From positions 1 to 32,086 of the IMG/VR virus record IMGVR_UViG_3300032329_000548: DNA of 32,086 bases. The stretch is one strand, 5' to 3'. A model generated the notes under the pieces. That model was not told the origin of the DNA, searched no databases, and saw only the letters and a program-made list of their open reading frames with translations. Positions 693-30,180 of this stretch are shown in pieces. Positions within the stretch are counted from its first letter, which is position 1. Each line of letters opens with the position of its first letter. The stretch is from a virus. Taxonomy: Duplodnaviria > Caudoviricetes. Position numbers and translations under genes: made by a program.

Positions 693-1546
693 TATAGACC
701 AGCCTTTTTGCTTTGATAAGCAGCGATGATAGAAAGGCGTTTGATCATTTTTACTACTTGTATGTCAATGGATTTTTGGACGGTAGATTTGCTGATGACG
801 TTTGATATCCATGGGATCGTGTTTGTCATTGAGATGTAGGGCTTTGAAAAAACGCCTGCTTTTGTTAGCGACCTATCCTCAACGCGGCCGCCGCCAGTAT
901 GACGATATACCCATTTTGGTATGCCCCTGAATCCGCCAAGGATCCCGGCACAGACGGCCCAGCCGGATTTTGCGATACCTACGTTTCCACGCTTTTGCTT
1001 AAAGTATCTGGCCAGTTCGGTTTCCTTTGTGACGATCTGGCGTACAAATTGATTTTTTGGCACTCGTCGATTCTTTCCAAACCTAGCATTTTCATGTGCG
1101 CTGCCTTTATCAAAATCGCCGATCCTAGTGTAAACGTAAGGCTTATAGTTTACGCGATCGATCAAAGCTTGCGCCTCGCTTTTTGCAGCGACGCCTTTCT
1201 TGCCTTTGTTGAATGATTTGCCCAGGACAAGCGCGGCCAACGCAGCTGCGGCCTGCTTGGCATTTTGTGTTGCCGTCTTTCCTTTTGCTAATGGCAACGA
1301 TCCTATTTCACGCACGGCCGTGGGTGCTGACTTGTAAACTCGATCGATATCCCGCGTCACAGCCTTCTCGCCTATGGCCTTGGCCTTTGCATTTAGACCG
1401 AATGGTTGAGTGGAATTGGCAAGGCTAACGCAAAGCGAACGAGCCTGAATTCGCATTTCCTTGGCGGCTTCGATCTTCATGTTTCCAGCAAAGGCTTTAA
1501 ATGCCTGCTGAAGTTTGATCGGATTTACGGTAAGGCTGGCGCTCAT
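692..1546 (-). CDS. Putative virion morphogenesis/neck protein (HK97 gp10-like position and basic composition)
   Basis: 284 aa, Lys/Arg/Ala-rich ORF, coupled to neighbours within the tail operon; function inferred from context only. Confidence 0.5.
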   Translation of the reverse strand: MSASLTVNPIKLQQAFKAFAGNMKIEAAKEMRIQARSLCVSLANSTQPFGLNAKAKAIGEKAVTRDIDRVYKSAPTAVREIGSLPLAKGKTATQNAKQAAAALAALVLGKSFNKGKKGVAAKSEAQALIDRVNYKPYVYTRIGDFDKGSAHENARFGKNRRVPKNQFVRQIVTKETELARYFKQKRGNVGIAKSGWAVCAGILGGFRGIPKWVYRHTGGGRVEDRSLTKAGVFSKPYISMTNTIPWISNVISKSTVQKSIDIQVVKMIKRLSIIAAYQSKKAGL

Positions 1547-1758
1547 AGTCCCAAGGCTTTCTCCATGTCACGGAGATCTGTGCCCACGACGGCATACGGC
1601 CGTCGCAACTTTGCTCCGTTCATATACATAAAAACGTGTTCAGCTTGATGGATGATGTGTAGCGGAACTTCCCAGAGAATCGTCATCAGTGGCCACCCGG
1701 TTTCTTTTGCCAGGACGAACACGCACGCGGCGGTTCCGCCTGGCGTTACCCGTTTCCC
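1543..1758 (-). CDS. Tail assembly chaperone frameshift extension (gpT-like), reached by a -1 frameshift
   Basis: The -1 frame after G GGA AAC is open for about 70 codons (RVTPGGTAACVFVLAKETGWPLMTILWEVP...KALGL*) and ends in an ATGA overlap with the next gene. Confidence 0.8.
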   Translation of the reverse strand, partial: GKRVTPGGTAACVFVLAKETGWPLMTILWEVPLHIIHQAEHVFMYMNGAKLRRPYAVVGTDLRDMEKALGL

Positions 1759-2129
1759 GGCGGCTGTGGCACGCCGGATGGGATTACGTTTACCTTAGAT
1801 TTGTTGGACTCATTTAGGATATTGGCGACCAGTAGGCTAGCGGTATCCCGATCCTCTTCGCCCAATTTCTCCGACCATTCCATCAGCTTTTCCCTGAAAG
1901 CATCCTGATCCCACGCCAACTTGATTGCTTCTTTCCTACTCTTTGCCAGCAAGATGTGCAGATAGATAAATGCGTAGACGAAAAATATAGGGCTGTCGTT
2001 TTCGTTACGGATTTGAATCATCAGCAAGCGACTGCCCTCGGTATACGGCGCCAGTTTCTGATCTTTGAAATATCTGTCTGGCGATATGAATGCCTGATCC
2101 AGCTCCTGCAACAGATTCTCTTCGCTCAT
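1746..2129 (-). CDS. Tail assembly chaperone (gpG-like)
   Basis: 127 aa, downstream of the tail tube, ends at the slippery site (PPGNG*). Confidence 0.75.
   Translation of the reverse strand: MSEENLLQELDQAFISPDRYFKDQKLAPYTEGSRLLMIQIRNENDSPIFFVYAFIYLHILLAKSRKEAIKLAWDQDAFREKLMEWSEKLGEEDRDTASLLVANILNESNKSKVNVIPSGVPQPPGNG
1752..1758 (-). promoter_or_regulatory. -1 programmed ribosomal frameshift slippery site GGGAAAC
   Basis: X XXY YYZ heptamer in the correct phase, one codon before the stop of 1746..2129; GGCGG/CCGCC stem just downstream. Confidence 0.8.
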
Positions 2130-2500
2130 AGTTTCTTTAGCATCGCCCGTTTCAGCTCTGGGCTGGCTCGCTCGCTGACTAGAAGCGTCTGCCCGCCACG
2201 TTGAATCGATATGATGGGTTCGGCCCGCTTCATTAGGCCGAGCAGAGTTTCTCGGTTTTCAAGGGCTGCCCTTACGTATCGAATAGGCGATTCCGCATCT
2301 GATTTCATTTCCGCCCAGGTGCGTTCCATTTCAGCTTTTGCCTCTTCGCCTTCAGATATGGTGAACCAAAAAGTAAACTGGCGATGGCCATCCTCTTTTA
2401 CAATGCAAGTGACTGGATCCATTGGACGCAACTTGGCGCCGAAAGCGGAAGCGGCCGCTGCCACCTTAATGTTTGTCGTTCCCCAAAAGCTATCGATCAT
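2126..2500 (-). CDS. Hypothetical protein in the tail operon
   Basis: 124 aa ORF, ATGA-coupled to the chaperone gene. Confidence 0.6.
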   Translation of the reverse strand: MIDSFWGTTNIKVAAAASAFGAKLRPMDPVTCIVKEDGHRQFTFWFTISEGEEAKAEMERTWAEMKSDAESPIRYVRAALENRETLLGLMKRAEPIISIQRGGQTLLVSERASPELKRAMLKKL

Positions 2501-2513
2501 TTTAGGATTTCAT

Positions 2514-2532
2514 AAACCCGCCGGAGCGGGTT
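2514..2532 (-). terminator. Probable intrinsic terminator/attenuator after the tail tube gene
   Basis: Minus strand AACCCGC-TCCG-GCGGGTT hairpin at the stop codon, followed by TTTAT (weak U tract). Confidence 0.5.
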
Positions 2533-2878
2533 AGCTCATGTTAGGGAAGCGAGTCGCAGAGACGTCCACCGTGACAAATCCGTCAGAAGCGCGATTCGTT
2601 GTGACGCTGTCCACGATGATCTTTCCGCCGGTGCTGGCAGCGTTAGCAAGCGTGGTTAGAACAGCGCCAGCCGTAGTAGCGTAGGTGCCCGTGATGGTTG
2701 TGGAGAAGGCAAAGGTATCAGTCGGGTTATACATGGCAGCACCGACTACCTCACCGCTTTGATTCCTAACTTCCGCACGTTCGACGTTGCGGGTTTCTGT
2801 GAAAGATTGCACGAGGCCGCCAGATTCCGCAGAGATGCCGAATTGTAGGCCAGAAGTTCCGATTGTTGTGGCTGCCAT
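2531..2878 (-). CDS. Putative major tail tube protein (small, very Thr-rich)
   Basis: 115 aa beta-rich sequence between the tail-terminator-like gene and the chaperones; has its own upstream motif and downstream hairpin. Confidence 0.65.
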   Translation of the reverse strand: MAATTIGTSGLQFGISAESGGLVQSFTETRNVERAEVRNQSGEVVGAAMYNPTDTFAFSTTITGTYATTAGAVLTTLANAASTGGKIIVDSVTTNRASDGFVTVDVSATRFPNMS

Positions 2879-2896
2879 ATTGCCTTAAATTTTGTG

Positions 2897-3343
2897 TCAA
2901 CTTGCAATAGAATTAGGATACGCGATGACTGCCAGTTTGTAGGTGCGCCGCATCGTTCTCTCCTCATCATCGGCTTCTGGCTCTATTGAGTCCAACTTAG
3001 CGTTATAGCATCGGGCAGATTCGATGGATGTCGTAGAGTTTAATTTATTTGCAAGCGAGCTTGAGTCAAAGAAAGCCTGTAGAACTTTGGAGCATTTTTG
3101 AGTGTGAGCATCCACGGTAGTGTCGTCATATCTATCATTAACAACTATTTCAACTGGAACGCTAAACACGCCAGATCCTTGCACCGGCTCCTCTGTCCCT
3201 AGCGTCGCCTTTATGACAATAGATGGTGGCACATTCTCCGTTTTATCGTGCGACAAGTGATACGTCGGCCCGGTAACTGTGGCGGATAGAAGCTCTTGAA
3301 AAGCGGCTTCAATTAGACGATCGAGCATGGTGACGGCGGCCAT
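2897..3343 (-). CDS. Putative tail terminator/completion protein
   Basis: 148 aa, immediately upstream of the tail tube; P-x-I-V-I pattern typical of tail terminators. Confidence 0.55.
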   Translation of the reverse strand: MAAVTMLDRLIEAAFQELLSATVTGPTYHLSHDKTENVPPSIVIKATLGTEEPVQGSGVFSVPVEIVVNDRYDDTTVDAHTQKCSKVLQAFFDSSSLANKLNSTTSIESARCYNAKLDSIEPEADDEERTMRRTYKLAVIAYPNSIAS

Positions 3344-3345
3344 GG

Positions 3346-4014
3346 TTACAGCTCCACGTCAACGCGGCTAGGCCATGAGGCAACGTTGTCCTGCGCCCAT
3401 CGTTCTTTCTGTGGCAGGAAGTAGGTCGGACGATCTTTACGTAAAGCAGACGCTAGTACGACCGAAGCCGAGTTAATTGTCATAAACTTGTCAGCGTGCT
3501 TAATGGCTTGCGCCATTTCGACAACTGATTGAGCCGTCCAGTGTTTTTTGTGGAAGTAGTATTGGCTCTCGCACATAATCACATAATCGCCCATCAACTC
3601 TTCCGCTTTTTGTAGAATATCCAAGGTTGGATAATTCCAGCCCTGGCTAATGCCTAACGGAGCCAGAAGGTTGTATTGATCAGGCAAACCGGATGGCAAG
3701 TCGTCTGGAATGCAATCCAAAACAATCTTCCTGTCCACTCCGACAAGAGCTGGATGGCTATACATAAAGTCGACGTAGCTTTGCCCGCTGTTTCGGTATT
3801 CGTTGTACCGTTCAGGCCATATCTGAAAGTCTAATATTTCACCTTCGCCTTCACCTGGCCCCACCCATTTTGCATAACTGATGAGATCCAAAGCTGATGC
3901 GTACTGTGGCAAACATTCGATCAACACTTGCTCGCCTTGACTGGCAAAGTGACGGGCTGCTGGGAAGCAGTTAATGATATCCCCAAGGCGCTGATGATAG
4001 ACAATCGTTTTCAA
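3346..4014 (-). CDS. Glycosyltransferase, GT9 (heptosyltransferase)-like GT-B fold
   Basis: N-terminal HQRLGDIINCFP motif; C-terminal AIKHADKFMTINSASVVLASAL resembles the GT9 donor-binding segment. Confidence 0.65.
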   Translation of the reverse strand: MKTIVYHQRLGDIINCFPAARHFASQGEQVLIECLPQYASALDLISYAKWVGPGEGEGEILDFQIWPERYNEYRNSGQSYVDFMYSHPALVGVDRKIVLDCIPDDLPSGLPDQYNLLAPLGISQGWNYPTLDILQKAEELMGDYVIMCESQYYFHKKHWTAQSVVEMAQAIKHADKFMTINSASVVLASALRKDRPTYFLPQKERWAQDNVASWPSRVDVEL

Positions 4015-4496
4015 TTATTAAATCCGACTATGGCAAACGACCAATATAGATCCCGCTCACTGCACAGGATTTGTTTGAACCCAAGATCGGCCAACGTCTT
4101 TGTCATATCCTCTGGGTGAAATAAATGGGCGTGCTTGCGATTGTTTTGTGGGCGCCAGTATTCCATGTCTGGATGAGGCAAATACATAAACAAAATTCCG
4201 CCATATTTGAGACGTGTTTTCCAATGCTCTAACGCATCAACATATCTTTCAACGTGCTCAAGGGTGTGAGACGAGAAAATAAAATCATATTTTCCGTCTG
4301 GTAAATTAAGTGCGTCGTGGCCGTCTGGTTGGTCAATGTTGACCACAGTAGCGCCAGGTAAGTGCCAATCTTTAGTGCCACCAATATCCAGCCCATTACC
4401 CCGGCAAAAATGTTGAGCAAATGGAAGTACGTGAGCGCATGCATTTCCGTTCTTAATATAATCTGGATACAGCTTGCCCTTGTATTCGTAGATCAC
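4011..4496 (-). CDS. Class I SAM-dependent methyltransferase (Methyltransf_11-like)
   Basis: GLDIGG motif I; YDFIFSSHTLEH; LKYGGILFMYLP. Confidence 0.85.
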   Translation of the reverse strand: MIYEYKGKLYPDYIKNGNACAHVLPFAQHFCRGNGLDIGGTKDWHLPGATVVNIDQPDGHDALNLPDGKYDFIFSSHTLEHVERYVDALEHWKTRLKYGGILFMYLPHPDMEYWRPQNNRKHAHLFHPEDMTKTLADLGFKQILCSERDLYWSFAIVGFNN

Positions 4497-6178
4497 GGAT
4501 TCCGCTCCTTGAATATCTTCTCGCCCAGCTCGTAATTTTCTTTTGCGTTGTGGCGTTTAAATTCCGCATCCTGCGCTGCGCCCGTGAATAGCGGATTATT
4601 GTGGGTAAATACGACGTCCTTGGCGGGAATGATCACGCCGTCGTGTGCGGCTCTTTTTGAAAACTCGTTGTCGCTAAAAATGCCGGAGCATGCGTCGTAC
4701 TCAGCGGCAAACATGGCACCCTGATCTTGCAGCCGAGCTTTTGTTAGGATTGCCATGCACAGCAGATCGTCTTTGCGATGTCCGTCAGATATGGCCAACA
4801 CCTTCGGCTTACTAGTATCGCCGATCCTGTCGGTGATTATTTTGTCCCAGTGTAGAGGAGGATCCCAATCGTCGGATCCTTGTATGATGATATCCCCACG
4901 GGCGACAGCAGCCGCACGATTCCAAGCCGCCACGCAGTCGCCCTTGCCTTTGATTAAGTTCCAGTTTTTTAGAGGCTCGGCCTTATCGTCGTCATCATCG
5001 CATGAGAATATCCACTCAACTGAGGCTGGATCTGCCGCCTTTTTCATCCACAAGATGCGGGCGTTGATAGCTTCCTGTGGCCTGCCGCGAGTGGCGTGGC
5101 ATACGCTGATCTTCACCGGCTTCTGTGCCCGCCACATGTTCTCGATCTTTTCTGCCTCGGCGGTATCGCCCACAGCCTTGCATGCCGCAAGATAAAGATC
5201 GATGCACTCAAAGTCATATACGGTACGCTGAGCATTCCAGATCTTTACGCCAGGATCCGGCTGAACCATGGCCGATTTTAGAAGGTGATAGGCTTGCAGC
5301 CATGCCCCCACGCTCGCCTCTTCCCTGGCTAAAAAGTAAATCGCCTCTCTCCGCCCAGGGTTCATCTGATGAGCCTTTTGATATAGGCCGATCCTAGCGG
5401 CACGATCGGTAGTGGCCGTGGCCTGATTGCAGGCGGCCTCGTAAGCCAAGGTTGGCTCCTGCCCTGGCCAAACGGCCGCCACATGCGACCATGGCTCAGA
5501 TTCGGCCCTGCGATTACCAAGATAAAGTTCCTGCTGGTAGTAGTAAGCGTACTTACCCGCCTCGCTGAGCTGTGCTTTTAGGATGCGGAGATTGCGATCT
5601 GCGCTGTTTGCCTTGTACCCTCCGGGGTGATGTTCCACCCAGACTGCCTGCTCGCCCACAGATTCTAGTCCAGCATTAGGCAACAGCGCCTCGTGAACGG
5701 CATAATGCCACTTTCCAGACCATACGCCGTCTATGCGCCTCACCATACGCTCGCGTACTGGGGCAAGTTTGGCGTTTAAAACAGCGTAAACGCCTGCATA
5801 GATGCCAAGCCTAGGATTCTGTTCAAACGCTTCCACAGCCCTTTTAATTGCGTTTTTGAGGTCTCTATGTGGCAAGTCGTCGCAATCGACCCAGACCGCA
5901 TAGTCGCCAGTGCAGGCATCCAGAGCTGTGTTGCGTGCGACTGCAAAGTTATCTACGTGTGGCCAGGTCGCCCCTGCCGATGCGTTATGGTACTCGACAA
6001 TCTTTGCGCCTGACTTTTCAGCGATGGCTCGCGTGCCGTCGTCAGGCTTGCCACCCTGCGCGATGCATACCACAAGCTCGTCGCAGTATGGCTTGAAGGC
6101 AGTAAGGCAGCGGTCAATAAATTGCGCCTCGTGCCCAGCGATCATGTAAATTGAAATTTTAGGATTTCGAGTGGCCAC
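4493..6178 (-). CDS. Bimodular glycosyltransferase: GT2 domain + TPR region + second GT-A domain
   Basis: KISIYMIA...IDRCL, NFAVARN, WVDCDD (DxD), VHE, RNLRIL; TPR-like helices (NPGRREAIYFLA); second domain ISVCHATRGRP...AAWNRAA...IQGSDDW. Confidence 0.85.
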   Translation of the reverse strand: MATRNPKISIYMIAGHEAQFIDRCLTAFKPYCDELVVCIAQGGKPDDGTRAIAEKSGAKIVEYHNASAGATWPHVDNFAVARNTALDACTGDYAVWVDCDDLPHRDLKNAIKRAVEAFEQNPRLGIYAGVYAVLNAKLAPVRERMVRRIDGVWSGKWHYAVHEALLPNAGLESVGEQAVWVEHHPGGYKANSADRNLRILKAQLSEAGKYAYYYQQELYLGNRRAESEPWSHVAAVWPGQEPTLAYEAACNQATATTDRAARIGLYQKAHQMNPGRREAIYFLAREEASVGAWLQAYHLLKSAMVQPDPGVKIWNAQRTVYDFECIDLYLAACKAVGDTAEAEKIENMWRAQKPVKISVCHATRGRPQEAINARILWMKKAADPASVEWIFSCDDDDDKAEPLKNWNLIKGKGDCVAAWNRAAAVARGDIIIQGSDDWDPPLHWDKIITDRIGDTSKPKVLAISDGHRKDDLLCMAILTKARLQDQGAMFAAEYDACSGIFSDNEFSKRAAHDGVIIPAKDVVFTHNNPLFTGAAQDAEFKRHNAKENYELGEKIFKERNP

Positions 6179-6497: not shown

Positions 6498-6533
6498 TGG
6501 AAAGGGCGGTGAGCCTTTCAGCCCACCGCCCTC
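6498..6533 (-). terminator. Intrinsic terminator after the major capsid gene
   Basis: Minus strand AGGGCGGTGGGC-TGAAAG-GCTCACCGCCCT hairpin followed by TTCCACTTT. Confidence 0.7.
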
Positions 6534-6543
6534 CCCGAGTGAA

Positions 6544-7459: not shown

Positions 7460-7987
7460 TTACAGTCCGAGTTTGCGGAGTAGTTCCGACCGACGGGCCG
7501 GATTCTTTTCCGCGTTGAATTGATTGAGGATTTCTGCCCGGCCGAGCGGTTGGCTCGATTCAGCGGGAACCGCCACTGCGCCAGCAGCGTCGGCCTTGGC
7601 TTTCTCCAAAGTTGTCACGGCCTTGTCGTCGGCCTTTTCGTCGGACTTGGCGCTCATTCCATAAGGCTTGGCCATGTCTTCGACGGCAGCGGCGGGAGCT
7701 GCAGGAGCTTCGCCCGCCTCTTCGCCTTGTTCTCCGGCAATATCTGCTTTTTGAAGAGCGATCATCGAATCCATTTTTTCAGACAGAGCGGTCAACATTC
7801 CGACAACGTCCGTGAGAGTAGGCTCAGCCATTTTTTCAGCAGGCTTGTCGGCGGGCACTTCAGCCAGTTCGGCTTTAGGCGCTTCGACAACTGCGGGAGT
7901 TGCAACGGCGGGAGCTTCAGGCGCGGGAGCTGCCACAACGGCAGGCTCGCTCAGCTCTTTTTTGACTTCGACAGGTGCTTCGATCAT
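7460..7987 (-). CDS. Nested in-frame scaffolding protein (internal start MIEAPVEVKK)
   Basis: ATG at the protease/scaffold boundary, preceded by TTGACA-N14; analogous to lambda C/Nu3. Confidence 0.6.
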   Translation of the reverse strand: MIEAPVEVKKELSEPAVVAAPAPEAPAVATPAVVEAPKAELAEVPADKPAEKMAEPTLTDVVGMLTALSEKMDSMIALQKADIAGEQGEEAGEAPAAPAAAVEDMAKPYGMSAKSDEKADDKAVTTLEKAKADAAGAVAVPAESSQPLGRAEILNQFNAEKNPARRSELLRKLGL

Positions 7988-8428
7988 TTGAAGTTTTTTC
8001 ATGTCAACTGCTGTAAAAGCAGAAAACATTCCCGCTGGGTTTGCGGCTGGCGTGCTAACTACGCTGATATCGTAAATTTCAGTTACCCTGGCGAAACGAT
8101 TGCCAGCAATCTGTTCGGGTACTCCGCTGAACGTAAGCGATAGCCCAAATCCCTCCGGCAACACCTGAGCCAAGTGCTGAACAAATTGCGCCTCGTTTGT
8201 GTTGAACAAAGTCAGATCACCCATTAGGCGATCGCCCTCGATCTTAAATCCGTCGATATAACCGAGGATCCCAGAAACTTCTGCCCCGTGACCCATAGTT
8301 ACTTTGATGCGTTTCATGGTGAGCGCCACGGCCAGCGCTTGCTCTAGCGAGGTTTGGTCGATCAGTAGGTTGTGCCCCTTGGCCTCGCCTACCGTTAAGA
8401 TGGATACGTTGGAAAGTTTGTTGGCCAT
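7460..8428 (-). CDS. Prohead maturation protease with C-terminal scaffold domain
   Basis: N-terminal GEAKGH...VTMGH...GLS...DISVVSTPAANP protease pattern; Ala/Glu/Pro-rich C-terminal half; ATG 8428 preferred over the TTG at 8437. Confidence 0.8.
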   Translation of the reverse strand: MANKLSNVSILTVGEAKGHNLLIDQTSLEQALAVALTMKRIKVTMGHGAEVSGILGYIDGFKIEGDRLMGDLTLFNTNEAQFVQHLAQVLPEGFGLSLTFSGVPEQIAGNRFARVTEIYDISVVSTPAANPAGMFSAFTAVDMKKLQMIEAPVEVKKELSEPAVVAAPAPEAPAVATPAVVEAPKAELAEVPADKPAEKMAEPTLTDVVGMLTALSEKMDSMIALQKADIAGEQGEEAGEAPAAPAAAVEDMAKPYGMSAKSDEKADDKAVTTLEKAKADAAGAVAVPAESSQPLGRAEILNQFNAEKNPARRSELLRKLGL

Positions 8429-8448
8429 GCTGGCCAACGGGTGTCAAA

Positions 8449-8952
8449 TCAGTTTCGGCTTAAAACTGGATCAGGAAAGATAGGTGAAAGTTGGACGGAT
8501 TGCCCAGGATCCGGCGGTGTGTTTAGGTCATGCATGGCCATTTTTATGGCTACGGCCAAAGCCTCGGCGCCATCCATTCTCTTCATATACAGCATTTGAT
8601 TATTCAGTCCGCCAAACTTTAGTTCAACAAATGGGCGGCCATATCCGCGAAAAGCCACCCAAGCAACCCAAAGAGATGCTAGAAAAATGATTGCCCCAGT
8701 AAGTATCCAATCTTCTGAAACTAAAATGCCCCCCATCAATAGCCCAAAAGCACCAAGCAAAAACCACATTAACTTTACAATCACTCCGCTGTTGTCGCGA
8801 CCGTGACTTACTCCATGTATCGTCGCCAAGTTAAACACTTGATTATATGGATGCCCCAAAGTGACCATGCTTTTAGTCACACTGATTGTATCGTCGTAAT
8901 AGTATAACTTGGAAGAATCTGAATCTGGCTGATTAGAACCAAGCCTGTTCAT
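8449..8952 (-). CDS. Membrane protein, DUF6232-like (moron)
   Basis: 167 aa with two TM helices; YYDDTISVT...FNLATIHGV N-terminal pattern; more AT-rich than its flanks; has its own promoter. Confidence 0.6.
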   Translation of the reverse strand: MNRLGSNQPDSDSSKLYYYDDTISVTKSMVTLGHPYNQVFNLATIHGVSHGRDNSGVIVKLMWFLLGAFGLLMGGILVSEDWILTGAIIFLASLWVAWVAFRGYGRPFVELKFGGLNNQMLYMKRMDGAEALAVAIKMAMHDLNTPPDPGQSVQLSPIFPDPVLSRN

Positions 8953-8958
8953 GCCCTG

Positions 8959-8986
8959 ATCCTATGGTCAGAGCTAGTGCGGACAA
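8959..8986 (-). promoter_or_regulatory. Sigma70-like leaderless promoter for the moron
   Basis: TTGTCC-N16-TAGGAT-N6-ATG. Confidence 0.5.
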
Positions 8987-11055: not shown

Positions 11056-11349
11056 TCAGCTATCCAGAATGTAAGAAAATGAGGCGCTGGTGCGTGTGAC
11101 CTGTACGCCATTTAGGTAATCGATTGCGGCCTGAAATAGTTCAACTCGTTCGGTTGGTTTAAGATCGATCTGGAAGCTGGCCGATTGCCCCCCCGCCGAT
11201 GTGCCAATCAAAGCACGGCCAGCGGCCGCGCCGGTCATGGCCGAGTTGCGGTCGGTTGCAAGATTGGTCAGCGCGGTCGCCGTAACCCCAGAGGCTTGTG
11301 CCAGGTAGTTTGTTGCGACGGCCCGAGTGAGTCTGCGGGAAATGGCCAT
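11056..11349 (-). CDS. Putative head completion protein (gpW position)
   Basis: 97 aa between terminase and portal, as in lambda gene order. Confidence 0.55.
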   Translation of the reverse strand: MAISRRLTRAVATNYLAQASGVTATALTNLATDRNSAMTGAAAGRALIGTSAGGQSASFQIDLKPTERVELFQAAIDYLNGVQVTRTSASFSYILDS

Positions 11350-13097
11350 CAGGACGCTTCAGGTGTCAACGGATCTGATTCAATGGAAGCAGTCGGGCGA
11401 ATCACTTTTCCATATACGGCAAAGGCCGCCAGATATGTTTCGCAATCATACAAGTGATCCTGTCTGCTTTTGATTCGCACCCATTCGTAAAGATCGCGAC
11501 CCGTCTTACGGTTAATCCTGTGCACCTTTTTGTGGCTGCTCATGTGCTCGCGGTAGTCTGGGCTTACGTCGTGAGCGATTTCCCAGAGTGGCCCCTGCCC
11601 TCGTCGCAGCCATGCCAGTAAGTCTTGGCAGGCCGGAGAGCTGATAAGCAAAAGCATGCAGCCTGCGTCAGTGGGCTGTTCAGCCGAATGAACTGATTTC
11701 ATCCGACCGCGTGGCGTTTCGATCCAGTAGTTTGGACGCTCTTCGCCTTTCAGCGCTTTCCATTTATAGCGGGCGCAGATTCTGTACGAGTCTTGCGTCT
11801 CATAACCCGTATCCAGCGCGGTATGCTGTGGTTGCACGCCTAGTTCATGTAGGTGTTGCGCCACGTCCTCAATCGTTCTTGCCCGCCCTTCATCAATCAG
11901 CCTGCTTGATCCATCCCTAGCAAACGCCCTCACAACAAACCAATACTCGTCGATCTGTCTGTCTATGGCCGCAAGTTTAATATGTTCCGTTTCCCAGTTC
12001 TGCTTTTTTGCAAATGCGCCAGCGGGTATATCGACGGTTTTATCGTCATCAAACTGATCTTCCCACGGCATTGCGCTCCATCCGTTTACGAATCCCTGCA
12101 ATCCGTGCAGATAATGTTTCTGAGTTAGAAATTGCTTGGCGCAATCCGCAAAGGTGACGGTCGGCGAGTACCAACTAGGCAGTCGCATGCTGCGCCTTCC
12201 GCGTTCTGCGTTTGGATTTGCTGCCACCCACCTACCCTGCTCAACGGCCGTGCGTCGATGGCCTTCATTCCATGGCTCGTTGCACTTAACACAATGATAT
12301 GCCGCCGTCTCTCCCACTTTCTGCAAGTCCCATTTGCCGTCTGGATTGCGTGCGCTGTCTGCCCAACGCACTTGCCCAAACTCCATCGCTTGAAATTCAC
12401 CGCAAGCGTGGCAAGGCACACGGAAAGTCTCTTGCGTTCCTGCCTGATAGTTCTGCCATATATCGCCCGTGCTTAACGTGGGCGTGCTAGTGAGTACGTG
12501 CTTGCGATTTGGAAAAGCCTTTGTGCGTTCTAGCGCCAGATTGTAGGCGGCCGCTTCGCGTTCGGTCGGTGGCGCAAACTTGTCCAGCTCGTCCAATACA
12601 GCGATGCAGATCGGGCGTGAGCTGATGTTTGCTGGGCTATTTGATCCAACTAAGCTGAGAGTCATGCTGGTAAACTGCATCTCTAGGATTTTAAAATCGT
12701 CGCTGTCGTATGGGAACAGTGCCCGCACCGGCTTGCACTTCTCAAAGATCGGAGTCAGTCGCGTTTCGCTGTATGACCTAGCCAGATCCGCGTTTGGCAT
12801 AACTAGCAAGGCTGGCGCAGGATCGTTTGCAATTCTGTACGCCAGCCATATTGCTAGGGTGAGCGTCTTGCCTGTCTGACTGCCCCAGCAAAGGCTAATC
12901 GTATGGACGCCCGGATCGGCCAACGCTTCTAATACGCCCGCCACGTAAGGCGTGTACTTGGTTGAGTAAAGACCTGGGCGAGCTGTGATCCTGCTATCCA
13001 GCTCAATGTACTTTTCGGCCCACTCGATTACTGACGGCGGTGGCTCAAAGTTCCAGCGGTCACGCTCGCGTTTGAGTAGCTGTTCAGCCGCCTTCAC
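11349..13097 (-). CDS. Terminase large subunit, lambda GpA family
   Basis: TPYVAG; WGSQTGKT Walker A; VLDELDKF Walker B; STPT; two CxxC motifs; AIDRQ nuclease motif; RQDHLYDC. Confidence 0.95.
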   Translation of the reverse strand: MKAAEQLLKRERDRWNFEPPPSVIEWAEKYIELDSRITARPGLYSTKYTPYVAGVLEALADPGVHTISLCWGSQTGKTLTLAIWLAYRIANDPAPALLVMPNADLARSYSETRLTPIFEKCKPVRALFPYDSDDFKILEMQFTSMTLSLVGSNSPANISSRPICIAVLDELDKFAPPTEREAAAYNLALERTKAFPNRKHVLTSTPTLSTGDIWQNYQAGTQETFRVPCHACGEFQAMEFGQVRWADSARNPDGKWDLQKVGETAAYHCVKCNEPWNEGHRRTAVEQGRWVAANPNAERGRRSMRLPSWYSPTVTFADCAKQFLTQKHYLHGLQGFVNGWSAMPWEDQFDDDKTVDIPAGAFAKKQNWETEHIKLAAIDRQIDEYWFVVRAFARDGSSRLIDEGRARTIEDVAQHLHELGVQPQHTALDTGYETQDSYRICARYKWKALKGEERPNYWIETPRGRMKSVHSAEQPTDAGCMLLLISSPACQDLLAWLRRGQGPLWEIAHDVSPDYREHMSSHKKVHRINRKTGRDLYEWVRIKSRQDHLYDCETYLAAFAVYGKVIRPTASIESDPLTPEAS

Positions 13098-13585: not shown

Positions 13586-13691
13586 AACGTCATTCAATGT
13601 TTTTGCAAAAAACTCAAGTAATTACCGAATGTCTTTGCCATCGCGGCCTTTAAACCATTTATGATAGCTTCCTTATGAGAAAGTTTCATGG

Positions 13692-14174: not shown

Positions 14175-14629
14175 TGGGTCATTTCTTTATAAGCATTAAC
14201 AATCGGCTCGGCTTCAGCAAGAAACTGCTTTCGCAGTTCTTTGTCTTGGCTGATAAACTTCAATCCTCTCGACGCAAGCCACTGCCTTGCTTTCATAATA
14301 GGAAACAAGAAGTGTTTGGGTTCGCTTGGCTCGCTGACTGTGATTGGATCGGGCATGATGCCGATACGTAAATACGTTTGACGCATCAGACTGGGATCGG
14401 CTTCGCCATTCGTTAGCTTCTGCTGCGCTGCGGCGACTTTCTCATACCGCTTGCCAACTTCCTCTGTGATCCCTGCCTCTTTGCATAGATCGACAATGTT
14501 ATCGCCGTTGGTGCGAGCCTGCTGAATGATCTCGCCAGCTTCCGCTGCCAAGCCAATCGTCTTGCCAATCAGCTCTAACGCCTTGTCGCGTGTTACGTTT
14601 AGTTTGTTAATTACTGGGGTTAGTTTCAT
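14171..14629 (-). CDS. Hypothetical protein (DUF3102-like helical DNA-binding protein)
   Basis: AAEAGEIIQQAR...GITEEVGKRYEKVA...SLMRQTY pattern. Confidence 0.45.
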   Translation of the reverse strand: MKLTPVINKLNVTRDKALELIGKTIGLAAEAGEIIQQARTNGDNIVDLCKEAGITEEVGKRYEKVAAAQQKLTNGEADPSLMRQTYLRIGIMPDPITVSEPSEPKHFLFPIMKARQWLASRGLKFISQDKELRKQFLAEAEPIVNAYKEMTQ

Positions 14630-15099
14630 TTCTTAATGCCTTTCTGTAAAGCGGCCATATTAAATTTAGGCGCTTCACGCCGCCGCTTGGCGTGGACGCG
14701 GTATGCTCGTTTGCGGTAAGACTCACGTGCCTTCTCGCTCTTTTGCGATCGTGCCCGTATGCCCAGCCGGTCATAGACTTCTGTGACTTTCTTGCTGATC
14801 GCTTGCTTAGTGATGCCGTACCGCTTAGCCACGGCCGTCATAGATTCAGGCGACCGATTCAGCGATATGTTTAGTACTGCATGCCCTAGCGTGTCCGTTC
14901 GGTTGGCCATAGCCGGGTGATCGGCAGACTTATCCATCAAGTGCTCTATCACTTTTGTGATAGTCGCAACCGATGACGTGGTGACGGTGATCTTGAGCGC
15001 ATCGCATGACTCAAAGACCAAATCCTGCAAACTATCCATCATCAACGCTGGGTGCGGAATGTTGGCCGGGATTCGTTCGATTGCTTCCTGATCTATCAT
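14626..15099 (-). CDS. HTH transcriptional regulator (sigma70 region 4-like); candidate late-gene activator
   Basis: ESMTAVAKRYGITKQAISKKVTEVYDRLGI HTH and a basic tail; located between replication and packaging genes. Confidence 0.65.
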   Translation of the reverse strand: MIDQEAIERIPANIPHPALMMDSLQDLVFESCDALKITVTTSSVATITKVIEHLMDKSADHPAMANRTDTLGHAVLNISLNRSPESMTAVAKRYGITKQAISKKVTEVYDRLGIRARSQKSEKARESYRKRAYRVHAKRRREAPKFNMAALQKGIKK

Positions 15100-21097: not shown

Positions 21098-21336
21098 TAC
21101 TGGGCGCTCCACATCCGTGCGACGGACGGGTTTGGGTGGTAGGCAGGCTCAGGTTCGTACCCGCCGCGAATTAAAAGTAAATTTTGTTGGTAGTGCTTCT
21201 TCGGAGACTCAGTTGTTACTGCCGTGTTACTATATCGGCGTAAGTCGTTGCAACCATAAGCATCGGACGGGGTGGGATTTGAACCCACGGATCTATTTCC
21301 TCTTTCGTTTTGATTTATTATGCTTGGCAAGTTCAT
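21097..21336 (-). CDS. Possible ORF spanning attP
   Basis: 79 aa; reads through the tRNA-derived core (SVGSNPTPS); its stop overlaps the next ATG. Confidence 0.3.
   Translation of the reverse strand: MNLPSIINQNERGNRSVGSNPTPSDAYGCNDLRRYSNTAVTTESPKKHYQQNLLLIRGGYEPEPAYHPNPSVARMWSAQ
21264..21290 (-). mobile_element. attP: attP core: 3' end of a tRNA (probably tRNA-Ser)
   Basis: CCGTGGG-TTCAAAT-CCCAC-CCCGTCC-G gives a T arm, an acceptor 3' strand and a G discriminator; 90 bp from the integrase start; flanked by TGTTAC repeats (about 21214, 21225, 21365; inverted at about 21374) resembling arm sites. Confidence 0.8.
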
Positions 21337-21380: not shown

Positions 21381-22478
21381 ATGGCGTATTCCTACATTAA
21401 AAAAGGAAATCCGTGGTTCTACATTCGCTTCAAAGATCCATCCGGCAAGTGGCGCACTAAAAGCACCCGCTACCGAATCGACAACACGCTGCATCGCGCC
21501 AAGGCAACGGCCGAGGCCGCTCGAATTGGAGTGAACGAAAAGCGAACGGATAACGGCCACGACTGGGTTGATGATTTGATCGAGAATCATCCAGTTTCCC
21601 CTCTGACAAAAGTGTATTACAGAAATTGCTGGCGTCATCTTGCGCGTTTTATTATCGAAAAAAAAATAACCCTGCAAGCGTTTTCTCCATCCGACTGTGA
21701 AATTTATTTGAAATGGCGCCAAAGCCTTCCCCGCACGTCCGGCGGTAAGGCTGGACGGAACCAAGCCTGCCAAGATTTGAAGATTCTTAAATGGATTCAC
21801 CGCCAGGGCCGACTGCTCGGGAAAATGGACTCGGTTGCTTTGCTCGATTACCGAATTAAGCGGGGACCGATAAACCGCATCAAACCTGTCTTTTCGGATA
21901 ATGAGATTAAAATCACCCGGAAAGCCTTGGCAGTCGAAGGTGTGCCCGAATGGATGCGAATCAGCTTTGAGATCGCCCTTGCCACCGGATGCCGGTTGCG
22001 AGAGACGCAGATCCCGCTCGACTGCGTGGACTTGAAAAACCGTGTGATGACCTTCCCTACCCCCAAGGGGGGATCCGGCAAATCGTTCAGCATCCCCATC
22101 CCGGCCGCCATCGAACCCATGCTGGCCAGAATGAAGGCCGAGGGCCGCGAGATCACTTGCGAAGTCCCCCGCACGCGAGCCTCGCTTTGCTGGCGTAGGC
22201 TGCTGGATATTTGCGGCCTCAAAAAACATTGTTTTCATTCCCTTCGCGTGACTCGTGTGACTCGATTGCGGCTCTCAGGTTGCAGCCAATCTGTCGCCAT
22301 GAGGTTGGTAAACCATTCTTCGACTTTAGTGCATGAGCTGTACCAGCGGCACTGCGTAGACGATCTCCGCGATGCTGTGAATTTAGGCCAGTCTGCATCA
22401 GCCTCCATCGATCAAAGTCAGACGGAATTACCTTTCCCGCGATCAGTGGGAATCCAGGCAACGCCTGCATTTGCTTGA
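21381..22478 (+). CDS. int: Tyrosine integrase
   Basis: N-terminal arm-binding WFYIRFKDPSGKW; catalytic LATGCRLRE, PKGG, FHSLRVT, LVNHSS and ELY. Confidence 0.93.
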   Translation: MAYSYIKKGNPWFYIRFKDPSGKWRTKSTRYRIDNTLHRAKATAEAARIGVNEKRTDNGHDWVDDLIENHPVSPLTKVYYRNCWRHLARFIIEKKITLQAFSPSDCEIYLKWRQSLPRTSGGKAGRNQACQDLKILKWIHRQGRLLGKMDSVALLDYRIKRGPINRIKPVFSDNEIKITRKALAVEGVPEWMRISFEIALATGCRLRETQIPLDCVDLKNRVMTFPTPKGGSGKSFSIPIPAAIEPMLARMKAEGREITCEVPRTRASLCWRRLLDICGLKKHCFHSLRVTRVTRLRLSGCSQSVAMRLVNHSSTLVHELYQRHCVDDLRDAVNLGQSASASIDQSQTELPFPRSVGIQATPAFA

Positions 22479-22590: not shown

Positions 22591-22746
22591 CTATTGTTTT
22601 GCCTCGTTTTCGAGTTGCGCCTCGATGAGTTGGGTTACCAGTTGTGAAAATGAAAGGCGTCGATCGTCTGCCAATTTAAATCCCGCTTTCTTCACGTCCA
22701 ATGGCAGATAGAGGTTTGTCTGCTCGTTTTCGTTGGCGCGGGGCAT
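22591..22746 (-). CDS. RHH protein, Cro-equivalent (51 aa, not in the ORF track)
   Basis: MPRANENEQTNLYLPLDVKKAGFKLADDRRLSFSQLVTQLIEAQLENEAKQ*; Arc/CopG-like strand-helix-helix pattern. Confidence 0.8.
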   Translation of the reverse strand: MPRANENEQTNLYLPLDVKKAGFKLADDRRLSFSQLVTQLIEAQLENEAKQ

Positions 22747-22843
22747 AGGCGCACGTTGTGCGCATAATGTAATGCGTCAATAAGATTCTCTCTTTATTTT
22801 GTTTATTCTTGCTTTGCGCATAAATAGCGCATATGATGCGCCA
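22747..22843. promoter_or_regulatory. Divergent leaderless promoters with phased GCGC operator candidates
   Basis: Leftward TTGACG-N16-CAACGT-N6-ATG; rightward TTGCTT-N17-TATGAT-N6-ATG; GCGC boxes at 22749/22760 and 22816/22827/22838 (11-bp spacing). Confidence 0.7.
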
Positions 22844-23032
22844 ATGGAAAAGCAGAGAACAAACATTTACCTTCCAGCAGACATCAAGAAAAAGGCATTT
22901 GATTTGGCTAATAAGGGTGGCCTATCCCTTTCAGGATATGTTACTCAACTAATCTTGCGGGAATGCGCAATCGCGGAGGGGCGCATTAAGGGCAGTCTTG
23001 CCATTTTTACGAAATCAAATAGGAATAAATAA
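22844..23032 (+). CDS. RHH protein, putative immunity repressor
   Basis: MEKQRTNIYLPADIKKKAFDLANKGGLSLSGYVTQLIL; divergent from the lytic operon. Confidence 0.8.
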   Translation: MEKQRTNIYLPADIKKKAFDLANKGGLSLSGYVTQLILRECAIAEGRIKGSLAIFTKSNRNK

Positions 23033-25526: not shown

Positions 25527-25697
25527 CTACTTTCTGGAAAATCGTGACAAAAACTCAATTATGCGTCCGAGCGTCCGTTCAGGCTCCTCGCCAGGGATAA
25601 ACGCGGCCACGGCAGCAATCGCTCCAAGCAGTGCCGTAACTGCGCCAAGAGCGCCGAGCCAATCAATCTTCAATAGTGCGGGGATGAGTGTTTCCAT
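25527..25697 (-). CDS. Holin-like membrane protein (56 aa, not in the ORF track)
   Basis: METLIPALLKIDWLGALGAVTALLGAIAAVAAFIPGEEPERTLGRIIEFLSRFSRK*; basic C-terminus; TTGACA-N13-ATG upstream. Confidence 0.6.
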   Translation of the reverse strand: METLIPALLKIDWLGALGAVTALLGAIAAVAAFIPGEEPERTLGRIIEFLSRFSRK

Positions 25698-25712
25698 GCC
25701 CCTTGCGCTATG

Positions 25713-25973
25713 TCAAAGGCCGATCCGACGTTTAATTAGTTCCCACGCCATAGAGCAAACTGCCCCGGCTACCAACGCGACTAACCACAGGCGGGTTTTG
25801 ATCGTGTGGGCATCCCGTTCCATCTGCGTGAGACGGCCGTGATACTCGCCTAGGCTGGCTTGTGAGCGTTCTAGCATATCCATAATAACCCCTTGGCGGG
25901 TTTCGATTCTGGCGATGCTCTCACGGACAAGGCTCAATCGTTCCGCAAGCTCTGCCACTTGGTCAGTGCTCAT
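25713..25973 (-). CDS. Coiled-coil protein with C-terminal TM helix (XhlA/holin-associated type)
   Basis: 86 aa; RESIARIETRQ coiled coil; LWLVALVAGAVCSMAW TM. Confidence 0.6.
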   Translation of the reverse strand: MSTDQVAELAERLSLVRESIARIETRQGVIMDMLERSQASLGEYHGRLTQMERDAHTIKTRLWLVALVAGAVCSMAWELIKRRIGL

Positions 25974-26110
25974 ACTTTTTCAGCGCCTTCCGCAATCCGC
26001 ACCCATTCCACCCCGTCCTTATCGATCCAGCGTTCGATAAATCCTTCGGCTTCTAGGTAACGGAGCTGGCTTTGAAGCTCACGCCATTCGGCTGAGTCGA
26101 AGCAGTCCAT
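25970..26110 (-). CDS. Small hypothetical protein (46 aa)
   Basis: MDCFDSAEWRELQSQLRYLEAEGFIERWIDKDGVEWVRIAEGAEKV*; ATGA coupling. Confidence 0.55.
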   Translation of the reverse strand: MDCFDSAEWRELQSQLRYLEAEGFIERWIDKDGVEWVRIAEGAEKV

Positions 26111-26275
26111 TCACTTGGCCTTCCCTGCATCCTCGGCTGCGCTCATGTCGCTATAGCGTGGTAAAACATTGTTGTCCTGTTTAGGAGAGCAAGAAGACAA
26201 AAAAACGCAAAAGATTACGGCAACAAATTCACATTTTTGCTTTTTTGATATTTTTTTGATTGCGCTATTTTTCAT
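26111..26275 (-). CDS. Small lipoprotein
   Basis: MKNSAIKK...VAVIFCVFLSSC lipobox. Confidence 0.45.
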   Translation of the reverse strand: MKNSAIKKISKKQKCEFVAVIFCVFLSSCSPKQDNNVLPRYSDMSAAEDAGKAK

Positions 26276-26288
26276 TTTGCAATTTGTT

Positions 26289-27284: not shown

Positions 27285-27287
27285 TGG

Positions 27288-27557
27288 TTAATATCCCCGC
27301 GTGTAAGCGATGACCTTGCCGGTAGAAAGTGCGAACGCAGTCACGGCCGCAAACACAACGAACCCGGCTGGGAATGTGATGCCGGTCAAGGCGTCGCCAG
27401 TAAGAGCTGTTTGGCTAACTGACGTAAACTGCCCGTCGGAGATGAATTGAATTGCTTGGAAATTGCCAGTGACGGTGGCCGTTGTAGTTGCAACTTTCCC
27501 GCCATACTCACCCACACTAAGCGAAGTATCCTGATTAATTTGTAAATCGTATGCCAT
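27288..27557 (-). CDS. Small virion protein
   Basis: 89 aa, Thr-rich beta sandwich-like, in the tail-tip cluster. Confidence 0.55.
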   Translation of the reverse strand: MAYDLQINQDTSLSVGEYGGKVATTTATVTGNFQAIQFISDGQFTSVSQTALTGDALTGITFPAGFVVFAAVTAFALSTGKVIAYTRGY

Positions 27558-27581
27558 ATAGGATTAAACGTTTGTCAAAAG

Positions 27582-29216
27582 CTAGTAGCCGATGACGGTG
27601 ATGCGGAACGTTGCGGCCGACTGGGTTTTGCCTGAACCAGTTGCATTGACTGCATCTACGTGCACTTGCCCGGCTGTAACTACGTGGCCAAAAAACGTTA
27701 AACCTTCCGAGACGGCTGATGGCACTCCAAGCATAACAACATCGTTTACGGCAGCACCACTGATAGAAACTGTAATTGAGTTGGATGAGTTATTTGCGAC
27801 CGTTCCAAAATTAAGTGAAGTCGTTACTGTCAGTGTTTCAGTCGATTGCGGCAACACGCCATAAGTTGTACCAGAAGCAATCAATCCTAGGTTGATTAGG
27901 CCAGAAACAGCATTGATGTTTGATGGTTGTGCAGTTGGCGTAGTCCCATAAAAACCAACTGGAATATTTTGCACCGCAAGCCCGGTATTCCAGTTCAATA
28001 TTGTATCAAATCCAGAATTGCTTATTAAGTTTCTATTTAAATAATCTATGGAGGCTCCACCAGAAGTATCATATAATTGCCTATTTGTTGCATCAACATT
28101 AGTGCTTGAATCCTCAACAAAAAGAGCGTTTGCCTCAGACTTTGTATAATACGAATCGCGAGCTCCTGGCACCGTGCTACCGGCCGTGATCAAATCCTTC
28201 CGTATGGTAGCTGTACCTTGAAAAATCGTTTTGGGTGTTCCGCCCTGAGTAAGCTCAATTTCAAGAGTTGGCGTAATTGTGTTTTCAGTAGTGTCCGCAA
28301 ACGCATCCTCCACCTCTGCGGTGTTGATGGTGAGTGTGGTTTGACGCATTGGAATGAACTGAATCCCGCTGGCGTCTAGGGTAAGGGCAGTCGTGATGTT
28401 TGTTAATCCGAGGCGGCCGGTAAATCCAATAATATATCCACCCTTGCCATTCTCTTGTACACTAATGTTAGAAGTAACCGTGGTAATTCCGGCAGAGATA
28501 GCGGCTTGTACCGATACAGCCGACTGAAAGAGCGGAATGGCTGTTGTTGCATTTCCTCCCCAAACCAAAGCAAAGGATCCACTGCGAGCCAACGGCCCCA
28601 CAGAAAGCTCATAAGTTTCGTTTTGCGTGGATGATCCGTCCTGCAATTTTGTTAAAGAAATTTCACTGGCGGTCGGAGTGACCGTAAATGTGTCCGCATA
28701 TACGATTGGATTGCGAACCAGCTTAACTACTTGCTGAGCTGCAACGCTGGCTGCCGGATTGCGGCGAGTGCTGATCAGCACTGAGCTGCTTGGGAAAAGC
28801 GTAAATGCATCTGGGCTGAACGACATGGCTGTATTAGGCTGGGTGGCTGTAAGCAAATACGCGCCGTAGGATCCTTGCCCATAAAGTGCCACCGTTGAAA
28901 CGTTGTTTGAGATAGCATTATAGACAGAAATTGCTGTCGCGTTATATGCGATCGCGGAGGAAGTCGTCCCGTTGATCGCAAGCTTAAACGATCCGGCCGA
29001 TGGTGTTTCTTCGATATTTCCAATTCCAGCCTTTAGGCTTGCCCCAGTAAAATCAATATCATCCAGCGATCCGTTTGCCTTTTTCTCAAGCAATCGCAAG
29101 CGGAGCGTATAAGCATCGTTTCTGGTAAGCGTAGGCAACGCCCCGCCAATTACGCTCCCGCCATCGATTAACTGGCCGGAGGATGTGTCGATGTATAGGT
29201 CTAGCGTAGAGGCCAT
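27582..29216 (-). CDS. Tail fiber/baseplate upper protein-like
   Basis: 544 aa, Thr/Ser-rich; two GSF.L...G.TT.AI.Y/F repeats; VGFYGTTPTAQP; YYTKSE. Confidence 0.7.
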   Translation of the reverse strand: MASTLDLYIDTSSGQLIDGGSVIGGALPTLTRNDAYTLRLRLLEKKANGSLDDIDFTGASLKAGIGNIEETPSAGSFKLAINGTTSSAIAYNATAISVYNAISNNVSTVALYGQGSYGAYLLTATQPNTAMSFSPDAFTLFPSSSVLISTRRNPAASVAAQQVVKLVRNPIVYADTFTVTPTASEISLTKLQDGSSTQNETYELSVGPLARSGSFALVWGGNATTAIPLFQSAVSVQAAISAGITTVTSNISVQENGKGGYIIGFTGRLGLTNITTALTLDASGIQFIPMRQTTLTINTAEVEDAFADTTENTITPTLEIELTQGGTPKTIFQGTATIRKDLITAGSTVPGARDSYYTKSEANALFVEDSSTNVDATNRQLYDTSGGASIDYLNRNLISNSGFDTILNWNTGLAVQNIPVGFYGTTPTAQPSNINAVSGLINLGLIASGTTYGVLPQSTETLTVTTSLNFGTVANNSSNSITVSISGAAVNDVVMLGVPSAVSEGLTFFGHVVTAGQVHVDAVNATGSGKTQSAATFRITVIGY

Positions 29217-29232
29217 TTAAGTTGAGCAAGTG

Positions 29233-30180
29233 TCAATTTATTGTAACGCCCATAAGCTGTGTGCTAGTCGCATTCGGATAATTTATTGTTGTATATGTTG
29301 TTCCATCAAAAAACACGCCTGTATATGAAGGAGGATTATCAAGTCTATTTCCAACTATATAAGAACCTTGTATATCAAAAGCCCTATCCATATTTAATAA
29401 AGTAAAGTTTGATCCATCATATAGCCAAACACCTGAACTCGAGTCGCCAACTACACTTAAGCCATCAATCCCCCTCAAAACAGTGTTATTATCATTTCCA
29501 TATTTAAATTGAGAAAAAGATGAGCCATCATAAATCCAGCCGATTGACCCACTTCCAACATTATGATAACCAACAACTTTTTCTCCACTAATACCGTATG
29601 CAAAAGTACCCCCGCTTGTTCCATCTGGATAAATTAAATCTTTGAAGCTATTTCCATCATATATCCAAGAGAAGAATCTTTGAGTACGATTCACATCTAA
29701 AGCTACTCCACAAACTTTTCCTCCGCTTACCCCAAAGGCTTGGGTGTTTGTTAATCCCGGATATATTATATCAGTAAATGTCGATCCATCATAAATAAAT
29801 CCTTTAGTAATGTTTCCAACAGTTACTCTTCCAACAATATTATTTCCGTCAATATCCTCAACCAGTGTAGATTGTGCTCCCGGATAACTTATGTCCGTGA
29901 AAGCTGACCCATCATAAACGAATGAAGCAGAATTTGTTTGCCCAACTATTTTGTATTTTTTATTTAATGGTTGCGTTGGCGTTGCCCCACCCGCCACTGG
30001 TTGTAAATAGCTTACTCTTGTGCCATCATAATGCGGCTCGACATACATTCCGTTTCCAGCCGTAAGTTTATATTGTCGCAAAAGATCGGCGGCATATTCC
30101 GTGCGATTGATGATGCCATTAACCAGATCGGTTGTAAGCCTTGTCCCGCTGGCCACCTTGGACAACCGAGGCCGGATCAT
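29233..30180 (-). CDS. Tail protein: N-terminal adaptor plus YDGS beta-propeller-like repeats
   Basis: About 6 repeats of (F/W)(I/V/L)YDGS.F....YPG...T..(G/D)I.G..(I/V)VG. Confidence 0.65.
   Translation of the reverse strand: MIRPRLSKVASGTRLTTDLVNGIINRTEYAADLLRQYKLTAGNGMYVEPHYDGTRVSYLQPVAGGATPTQPLNKKYKIVGQTNSASFVYDGSAFTDISYPGAQSTLVEDIDGNNIVGRVTVGNITKGFIYDGSTFTDIIYPGLTNTQAFGVSGGKVCGVALDVNRTQRFFSWIYDGNSFKDLIYPDGTSGGTFAYGISGEKVVGYHNVGSGSIGWIYDGSSFSQFKYGNDNNTVLRGIDGLSVVGDSSSGVWLYDGSNFTLLNMDRAFDIQGSYIVGNRLDNPPSYTGVFFDGTTYTTINYPNATSTQLMGVTIN

Follow-up and report, generated by a model that had tools for sequence, protein, structure and literature searches.

Why should every copy of a −35 promoter word in a phage genome stand a nearly constant distance from a start codon? 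The question is raised by a 32,086-nucleotide (nt) stretch of Caudoviricetes DNA (IMG/VR record IMGVR_UViG_3300032329_000548, positions 1 to 32,086; the whole stretch is hereafter called the window), in which the hexamer TTGACA, i.e., the −35 hexamer of canonical sigma-70/sigma-A promoters, precedes late genes. The late-gene TTGACA is located 13 to 17 bases before start codons, about 15 bases closer than in the likely Verrucomicrobia host. Comparison with related genomes suggests that this motif is probably a compact phage late promoter read by a repositioned region 4 of the host sigma-A, with a small helix-turn-helix (HTH) protein, P0121, as a possible remodeller.

TTGACA sites and their spacing

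An earlier note on this DNA counted eight TTGACA, all on the minus strand and none on the plus strand; an exact word count on both strands returned the same eight at the same coordinates, each on the minus (coding) strand. With Nx denoting x nt between hexamer and start codon, their ATG spacings in coordinate order were N14, 16, 14, 13, 14, 13, 15, and 14. The variant described at 3357-3362 was also present. The sites, with their conservation in homologs, are as follows.

746..768, minus: TTGACA-N14-ATG inside the 284-amino acid (aa) open reading frame (ORF) 692-1546; hexamer in 46/46 homologs
2876..2900, minus: TTGACA-N16-ATG before a 115-aa likely tail tube gene; TGA of the motif is the upstream stop; 13/13 homologs
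3341..3362, minus: TTGACG-N13-ATG, one mismatch, before a 148-aa gene; in relatives TTGACG (14/27) or GTGACA (13/27), each one mismatch from the consensus
7985..8007, minus: TTGACA-N14-ATG within ORF 7460-8428 and in frame with it, 5′ of the major capsid gene, its ATG a likely internal scaffold start; 69/69 homologs
8426..8447, minus: TTGACA-N13-ATG before a 322-aa likely protease/scaffold gene; among 39 homologs, TTGACA in 30 and TTGACG in 9
11347..11369, minus: TTGACA-N14-ATG within the final TerL codons, before a 97-aa gene and the portal gene; 94/97 homologs as a coding hexamer and 17/17 homolog starts
25695..25716, minus: TTGACA-N13-ATG before a 56-aa holin-like gene and the endolysin gene; TGA is the upstream stop; a search for homolog starts found only the window's own
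27555..27578, minus: TTGACA-N15-ATG before an 89-aa gene; a search for homolog starts found only the window's own
29214..29236, minus: TTGACA-N14-ATG before a 544-aa likely fibre gene; TGA is the upstream stop; 13/13 homologs

The chance of an ATG at N13-16 on the minus strand was 0.068 per site, such that the agreement of 8/8 sites with the spacing claimed earlier has p ∼5e-10. When every 4-nt window between N3 and N32 was tested for the 2,467 hexamers with at least six copies, TTGACA was the sole word at 100% with ATG, the best other word reaching 4/6. The hexamer was also rarer in the window than in shuffles (8 versus a mean of 17.1). Promoter scans found a −10 element 16 to 18 bp 3′ of the hexamer at 0/8 sites, a position that lies inside the gene, and none of the TerS, TerL, portal, and major capsid genes of the window was preceded by the motif.

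As the earlier note had it, the TGA of the motif doubles as the upstream stop codon at three of the eight sites (2895, 25711, and 29231); three others lie within coding sequence (763, 8002, and 11364), and two are intergenic (8442 and 27573). A frame-related role of this TGA was ruled out, as the spacings span all three frames. The ATG at 748 assigned to the site at 763-768 is indeed present at N14, but it is internal in ORF 692-1546, in frame, and yields only an 18-aa tail, whose end overlaps through TAATG with a long ORF spanning the contig origin, likely the tape measure gene. The gene labels given earlier (protease, scaffold, tail tube, tail terminator, holin, and fibre) returned no informative Pfam or PHROG match and are retained on gene order. 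A possible two-mismatch variant, CTGACC-N13-ATG, stands before the 167-aa gene at 8449-8971 (minus strand).

Persistence of motif and spacing in related phages had been proposed as a check, and both persist. Among 151 close viral loci, ATG was found at N12-16 in 119/143 distinct sense contexts as compared to 3/18 antisense contexts. With 23 more loci (∼53% capsid identity) and GTG allowed, ATG or GTG was found at N12-17 in 389 of 407 distinct sense contexts, which are not independent of one another. Hexamers embedded in coding sequence were invariant at synonymous positions (46/46, 69/69, and 94/97 homologs). In 64 dereplicated spacers from relatives, no −10 element, Shine-Dalgarno (SD) word, or upstream element was conserved; with 64 and 95 dereplicated spacers, no second conserved element was seen in the spacer or up to 40 nt upstream, except a weak G at +12, and the logos of both sets lacked a TANNNT-type −10 element six bp before the start, as found in the Thermus phage Lalka27a. 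The capsid gene (35/35) and portal gene (22/22) have no motif in homologs. Five Mu-like phages (∼42% capsid identity) and an Akkermansia locus (L156) lack the motif, and the HTH gene is likewise absent from the stretches examined. Some relatives carry, upstream of terminase, an inserted 187-aa gene headed by an inverted pair, TGTCAA-N10-TTGACA, followed by TGT-TATAAT and ATG (L112:807, L113:1032, L139:1323, and L006:1053); this looks like an autoregulated accessory gene.

A probable promoter with half the host distance

Selection on the hexamer was detectable where no ATG follows at the usual distance. In 11 relatives (51–97% nucleotide identity), TTGACA is kept before the tape-measure-like gene although the triplet at N14 is CTA, TTA, or CTG (Leu). 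Of 11 invariant Leu columns, the one within the motif (CTT) alone was codon-invariant, and of 48 highly degenerate invariant columns just four were. Codon shuffles of 442 ORFs from 35 dereplicated loci gave an expectation of 56.2 ± 6.4 antisense TTGACA inside ORFs, of which 9 were observed; off-target sense copies numbered 10 as compared to 88.6 expected. At 95 dereplicated sites, a pyrimidine preceded the start purine in 22 of 23 N13 cases (p 3e-6), G occupied +12 in 45 (p 3e-6), and SD words were found at 4, versus 23/180 control starts. The conservation of ATG-less sites and the antisense purge favour a DNA-level promoter over a ribosome signal. Of the two readings left side by side in the earlier note, comparison supports the late promoter and weakens the RNA initiation element, through these two observations and through a fit to the pyrimidine-purine (YR) start rule at positions 14-15.

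The geometry of the likely host was examined in 800 kb of the 2.05-Mb genome G407 (C1 1-800000, L178-L217) with crude start calls. TTGACN stood before the ATG of a long ORF in 24 cases at N26-31 as compared to 3 at N12-17. Candidate leaderless starts exhibited A at −11 in 13/25 and T at −7 in 17/25. This peak with A-11/T-7 indicates that the host likely makes leaderless mRNA. In Akkermansia, about 10% of transcription start sites are leaderless and the YR rule holds, according to a Cappable-seq study (PMC4782308). SD words showed no peak before long ORFs in this crude start set despite an intact anti-SD. The complement TGTCAA was absent in 2/2 16S genes from the host family, which carry the ordinary anti-SD and so offer no rRNA pairing to the motif. 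Region 4.2 of the host sigma-A is canonical. Host-wide, counts at N13-16 and at control spacing were similar (G001, 9 versus 7; G002, 121 versus 119; G003, 129 versus 112; G004, 34 versus 29). The window itself contains canonical geometry before early genes, the first of the following serving as an internal control.

22744..22780, minus: TTGACG-N16-CAACGT-N6-ATG (N28), canonical-geometry, promoter-like, before an Arc-like gene
22809..22846, plus: TTGCTT-N17-TATGAT-N6-ATG (N29), divergent, canonical-geometry, before an Arc/RHH-like gene

Since host and early phage genes use about N28, the late layout corresponds to the host layout minus ∼15 bp and minus the −10 element. The two divergent Arc/RHH-like genes (22591-22746, minus; 22844-23032, plus) have leaderless-type canonical promoters and GCGCA-containing repeats in common, and are a likely lysis-lysogeny switch.

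TTGACA is normally recognised by sigma region 4.2. In the proposed mechanism, region 4 of the host sigma-A would be moved about 15 bp toward the start and would read the hexamer there; hexamer, ∼1 bp, a 6-bp −10 region, and a 6- to 7-bp discriminator would together give N13-14. With a spacing like that of the lambda-Q complex, +1 would fall on base 14 or 15 past the hexamer, coinciding with the start codons and the YR signal, and messages would begin there leaderless or nearly so. Each site would head a small transcription unit, its first gene read leaderless and later genes by SD (for capsid, AGGAG) or by overlap coupling, and one-mismatch words (TTGACG and GTGACA) may tune strength. Less secure than the sigma step is the suggestion that the HTH protein encoded at 14626-15099 drives the remodelling and makes a −10 sequence dispensable.

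14626..15099, minus: P0121, 157 aa, candidate late activator, between primase and terminase

P0121 is predicted to contain a three-helix HTH at about residues 69 to 116 (mean predicted local distance difference test score, pLDDT, 70; predicted template modelling score, pTM, 0.36) and has a conserved basic tail, KSxxAR..Y. It has 54 relatives at E ≤ 0.001; Foldseek returned no match at E ≤ 0.001, no match was found in 50,697 GenBank phage records, and no Q-family Pfam or PHROG entry was among the matches listed. An HTH profile search gave 27 matches in 24 of 401 Verrucomicrobiota genomes. Flanks were taken for 24 of the 27 (23 sets; G106, G211, and G082 left out); ten sets contained 5 to 10 motif sites on the strand of the gene, and one short set had 2/3. 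As a control, loci were selected by portal (67/99 lambda-type and 3/17 HK97-type matches had usable flanks) and scored in segments of at most 20 kb. At least three motif sites were found in 7/10 HTH-positive loci versus 3/60 HTH-negative loci (Fisher p 1e-5), and pooled sites numbered 41/65 (control spacing, 6) and 29/240 (control spacing, 23), respectively. Two of the three HTH-negative exceptions carry divergent proteins with the same basic tail. Co-occurrence of HTH gene and motif is a lead, not proof. The HTH recognition helix varies among prophages with an identical hexamer, while sigma region 4.2 reads TTGACA; this and the spacing of the lambda-Q complex together are why a repositioned sigma region 4 is favoured.

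The gene next to P0121 (14171-14629, minus strand) encodes a 152-aa protein that always adjoins the HTH gene in close relatives and has a feature similarity of 0.93 to DUF3102 clusters; it is a possible second component. A mini-sigma idea, based on a region-2.2-like string in P0183 and P0185, was rejected, as both records look chimeric and profile comparison gave no support. In each, a methyltransferase or RpoH-like N terminus is joined to an HTH-family C terminus, and they are probably chimeric assemblies.

Several results weigh against a repositioned sigma region 4 assisted by P0121. No −10-like bases occur at any offset and many spacers are GC-rich, such that DNA opening is not accounted for. 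The lambda-Q precedent is an elongation complex and does include a −10-like element. TerS and TerL of the window have no motif. Among the 11 ATG-less relatives, GTG is found at N26 in 10 and CTG at N14 in one. The antisense purge is partly generic, since the host too avoids TTGACA, if more mildly (antisense 47 versus 109; off-target sense 38 versus 126). YR at position 14 or 15 was found in 24/35 N14 sites and 22/34 N15-17 sites, where chance is about half. With regard to P0121, 12 of the 23 HTH-flank sets had no clear signature (mostly weak matches or short flanks), locus L349 has the motif with no HTH detected within 12 kb, and G075, with an HTH match at E 1e-43, has only 2/4 sites. Its fold match is generic (best Z 5.1, with tied rows), and when family alignment A2 was compared with the host sigma-A by hhalign, the alignment covered only the region 4.2 helix (E 0.054). 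All motif-positive portals (15/15) belong to one 21-row clade of a FastTree phylogeny with several long branches; inside that clade the HTH link had p 0.011 counting the two divergent proteins post hoc and p 0.12 otherwise. Because the motif carriers all share one portal clade, shared descent may account for the HTH-motif link.

Joined into one chain, these steps describe a small HTH protein that would detach sigma-A region 4 from the flap and place it on TTGACA at about −19 to −14, giving −10-independent initiation from 6 bp and leaderless late mRNAs gene by gene in one Verrucomicrobiota phage clade, i.e., the paused geometry of lambda Q turned into a promoter class. As a whole this chain is tentative, and we consider it rather doubtful in full.

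Alternative explanations and known systems

It is unlikely that the motif acts on elongation or on the long late transcript, either as a sigma-4-dependent pause or factor-loading site or as a nuclease site cut 13 to 16 nt downstream to leave leaderless 5′ ends. Such an element needs no −10, tolerates loss of the ATG, and is consistent with the purge of off-target sense copies noted above. Its geometry fits the paused-complex structure in PMC9388147, and among the fold matches of the HTH the top-ranked one, which is tied, is to a chain from the AlpA-loaded complex (Z 5.1; root mean square deviation 4.1; 51 residues aligned). However, antisense copies, which would rarely be transcribed, are purged too (9 versus 56), and the YR signature is as expected of initiation. 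Pausing induced by sigma-4 at a −35-like element has been reported, but likely happens during early elongation only (PMC3326312).

An RNA-level signal that replaces SD in translation initiation, with the ribosome or an RNA-binding protein of the phage as its reader, has a slim chance of being correct. The start codon at N12-17 in 96% of sense copies, a spread of about 4 nt like that of SD spacing, spacers devoid of SD, and a host with no SD peak in the crude start set are all as expected of one. It does not explain why the hexamer is under selection where no start codon follows or why it is depleted from the antisense strand; the ordinary anti-SD, with no TGTCAA in 2/2 host 16S genes, and the disuse of N13-16 by host genes also argue against it, as does the capsid gene, which is the highest-copy gene and lacks the motif (35/35).

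That the phage HTH protein itself reads a compact promoter, serving as a minimal sigma-like factor or an activator with no part for host sigma region 4, is similarly improbable. The co-occurrence of gene and motif would follow from it, the tripeptide VTR is common to the HTH family and sigma region 4.2, and 7/39 family members have a weak Sigma70_r4 match, of which one is a GerE contaminant of the alignment. The differing recognition helices among prophages with an identical hexamer speak against this reading, and profile comparison revealed no region-2 similarity. Avoidance of an asymmetric restriction site on one strand (for which T7 and EcoP15I are a precedent), with ordinary −35 use or chance behind the rest, is very remote: TTGACA is depleted in host and phage, but no −10 lies at 16 to 18 nt, and the fixed start-codon distance and the synonymous invariance are left unexplained and largely refute it.

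The repositioned-sigma promoter that we favour resembles several known systems in part. The temperate Thermus phage Lalka27a has 16 predicted late promoters with mostly leaderless transcripts, canonical early promoters, and a late consensus attributed to a phage factor on host RNA polymerase (bioRxiv 10.64898/2026.04.20.719267). The window is alike in its dense, here predicted, leaderless late promoters and canonical early promoters, the motif being confined to late genes. In contrast, the late element of Lalka27a is TAGGGT, a variant −10 located 6 bp before the start, whereas the element here is an exact −35 word at 13 to 16 bp with no −10. In the lambda-Q loading complex (PMC9388147), sigma region 4 is released from the flap tip and, held by the phage late regulator, contacts a −35-like site that directly adjoins −10-bound region 2 on the upstream side; that spacing adds up to N13-14. 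Lambda Q acts on one elongation complex, paused near its promoter, that includes a −10-like element and a Q binding element, unlike the at least nine dispersed, start-linked sites found here, which have no −10 and no common upstream element and do not form the single-promoter arrangement of a Q cassette. Leaderless sigma-A promoters of Verrucomicrobiota (in G407 and, from PMC4782308, Akkermansia) share the hexamer, a start codon at or near the predicted transcription start, and the YR rule; they differ in carrying the hexamer at N26-31 with A-11/T-7, as compared to N13-17 with neither at the phage late sites.

Other phages also mark a gene class near its starts with a single short phage-specific element. 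T4 late promoters have a −10-only element read by the phage sigma factor gp55, and the start-associated sequences of cluster K mycobacteriophages are longer, SD-containing elements; neither is a sigma-70 −35 word. No description of the motif was found in the open-licence papers of PMC and bioRxiv; the layout is real and conserved, and is likely an undescribed promoter variant. Textbook accounts of sigma-70 initiation treat both the −35-to-start distance and the −10 requirement as constant; if the favoured reading is true, a widespread phage promoter with an exact −35 word at half that distance and no −10 would reveal a new means of redirecting host RNA polymerase. In practical terms, the motif rule sets start codons, nested scaffold starts among them, and flags the late genes of a phage clade that is abundant and has poor annotation; a candidate protein with a 6-bp site makes the proposal testable.

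The phage, its likely host, and other features

The window is a circular temperate phage: it is circular with a 123-nt terminal repeat and encodes a lambda-type TerL and portal, major capsid protein, primase, endolysin, and integrase. Features outside the motif sites are as follows.

2511..2540, minus: terminator-like hairpin after the tail tube gene (z −3.08)
6499..6536, minus: strong terminator-like hairpin after the major capsid gene (−34.6 kcal/mol, z −5.18)
21264..21290, minus: attP core, 27 nt, identical to the 3′ end of host tRNA-Ser(CGA)
21381..22478, plus: tyrosine integrase (phrog_1, E 2.8e-31; Pfam PF00589)

The attP core matched with zero mismatches in 25 of 34 genomes from the family of G001, 23 of them with the exact letter of the window at one degenerate position, and matches fell at tRNA-Ser(CGA) in 4/4 loci tested. 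In an even phylum sample of 301 genomes, G001 alone had an exact match. This genome, a Verrucomicrobia UBA3063 bin listed at NCBI as unclassified Verrucomicrobiota, also carries a TerL at 78% and an integrase at 55%, and its Verrucomicrobiota family is the likely host of the phage. A third hairpin candidate in the window was not significant (z −0.67), and the terminators placed earlier behind the capsid and tail tube genes correspond to the two significant hairpins (z −5.2 and −3.1).

Many related contigs (L082, L130, L224, and others) begin at the equivalent of 13620-13642, 545 nt before TerL, which is likely a packaging end (cos/pac). A conserved block, TTGAGT/GAGAGT, lies about 25 nt into this common start and is kept also in phages with a separate TTGACA before TerS. 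The 167-aa gene at 8449-8971 (weak DUF6232) is located between portal and protease and has 34 to 54% identity among the relatives listed. Inserted between head and tail genes (4011-6178, minus strand) are a two-domain glycosyltransferase and a methyltransferase, which possibly modify the virion or the host surface.

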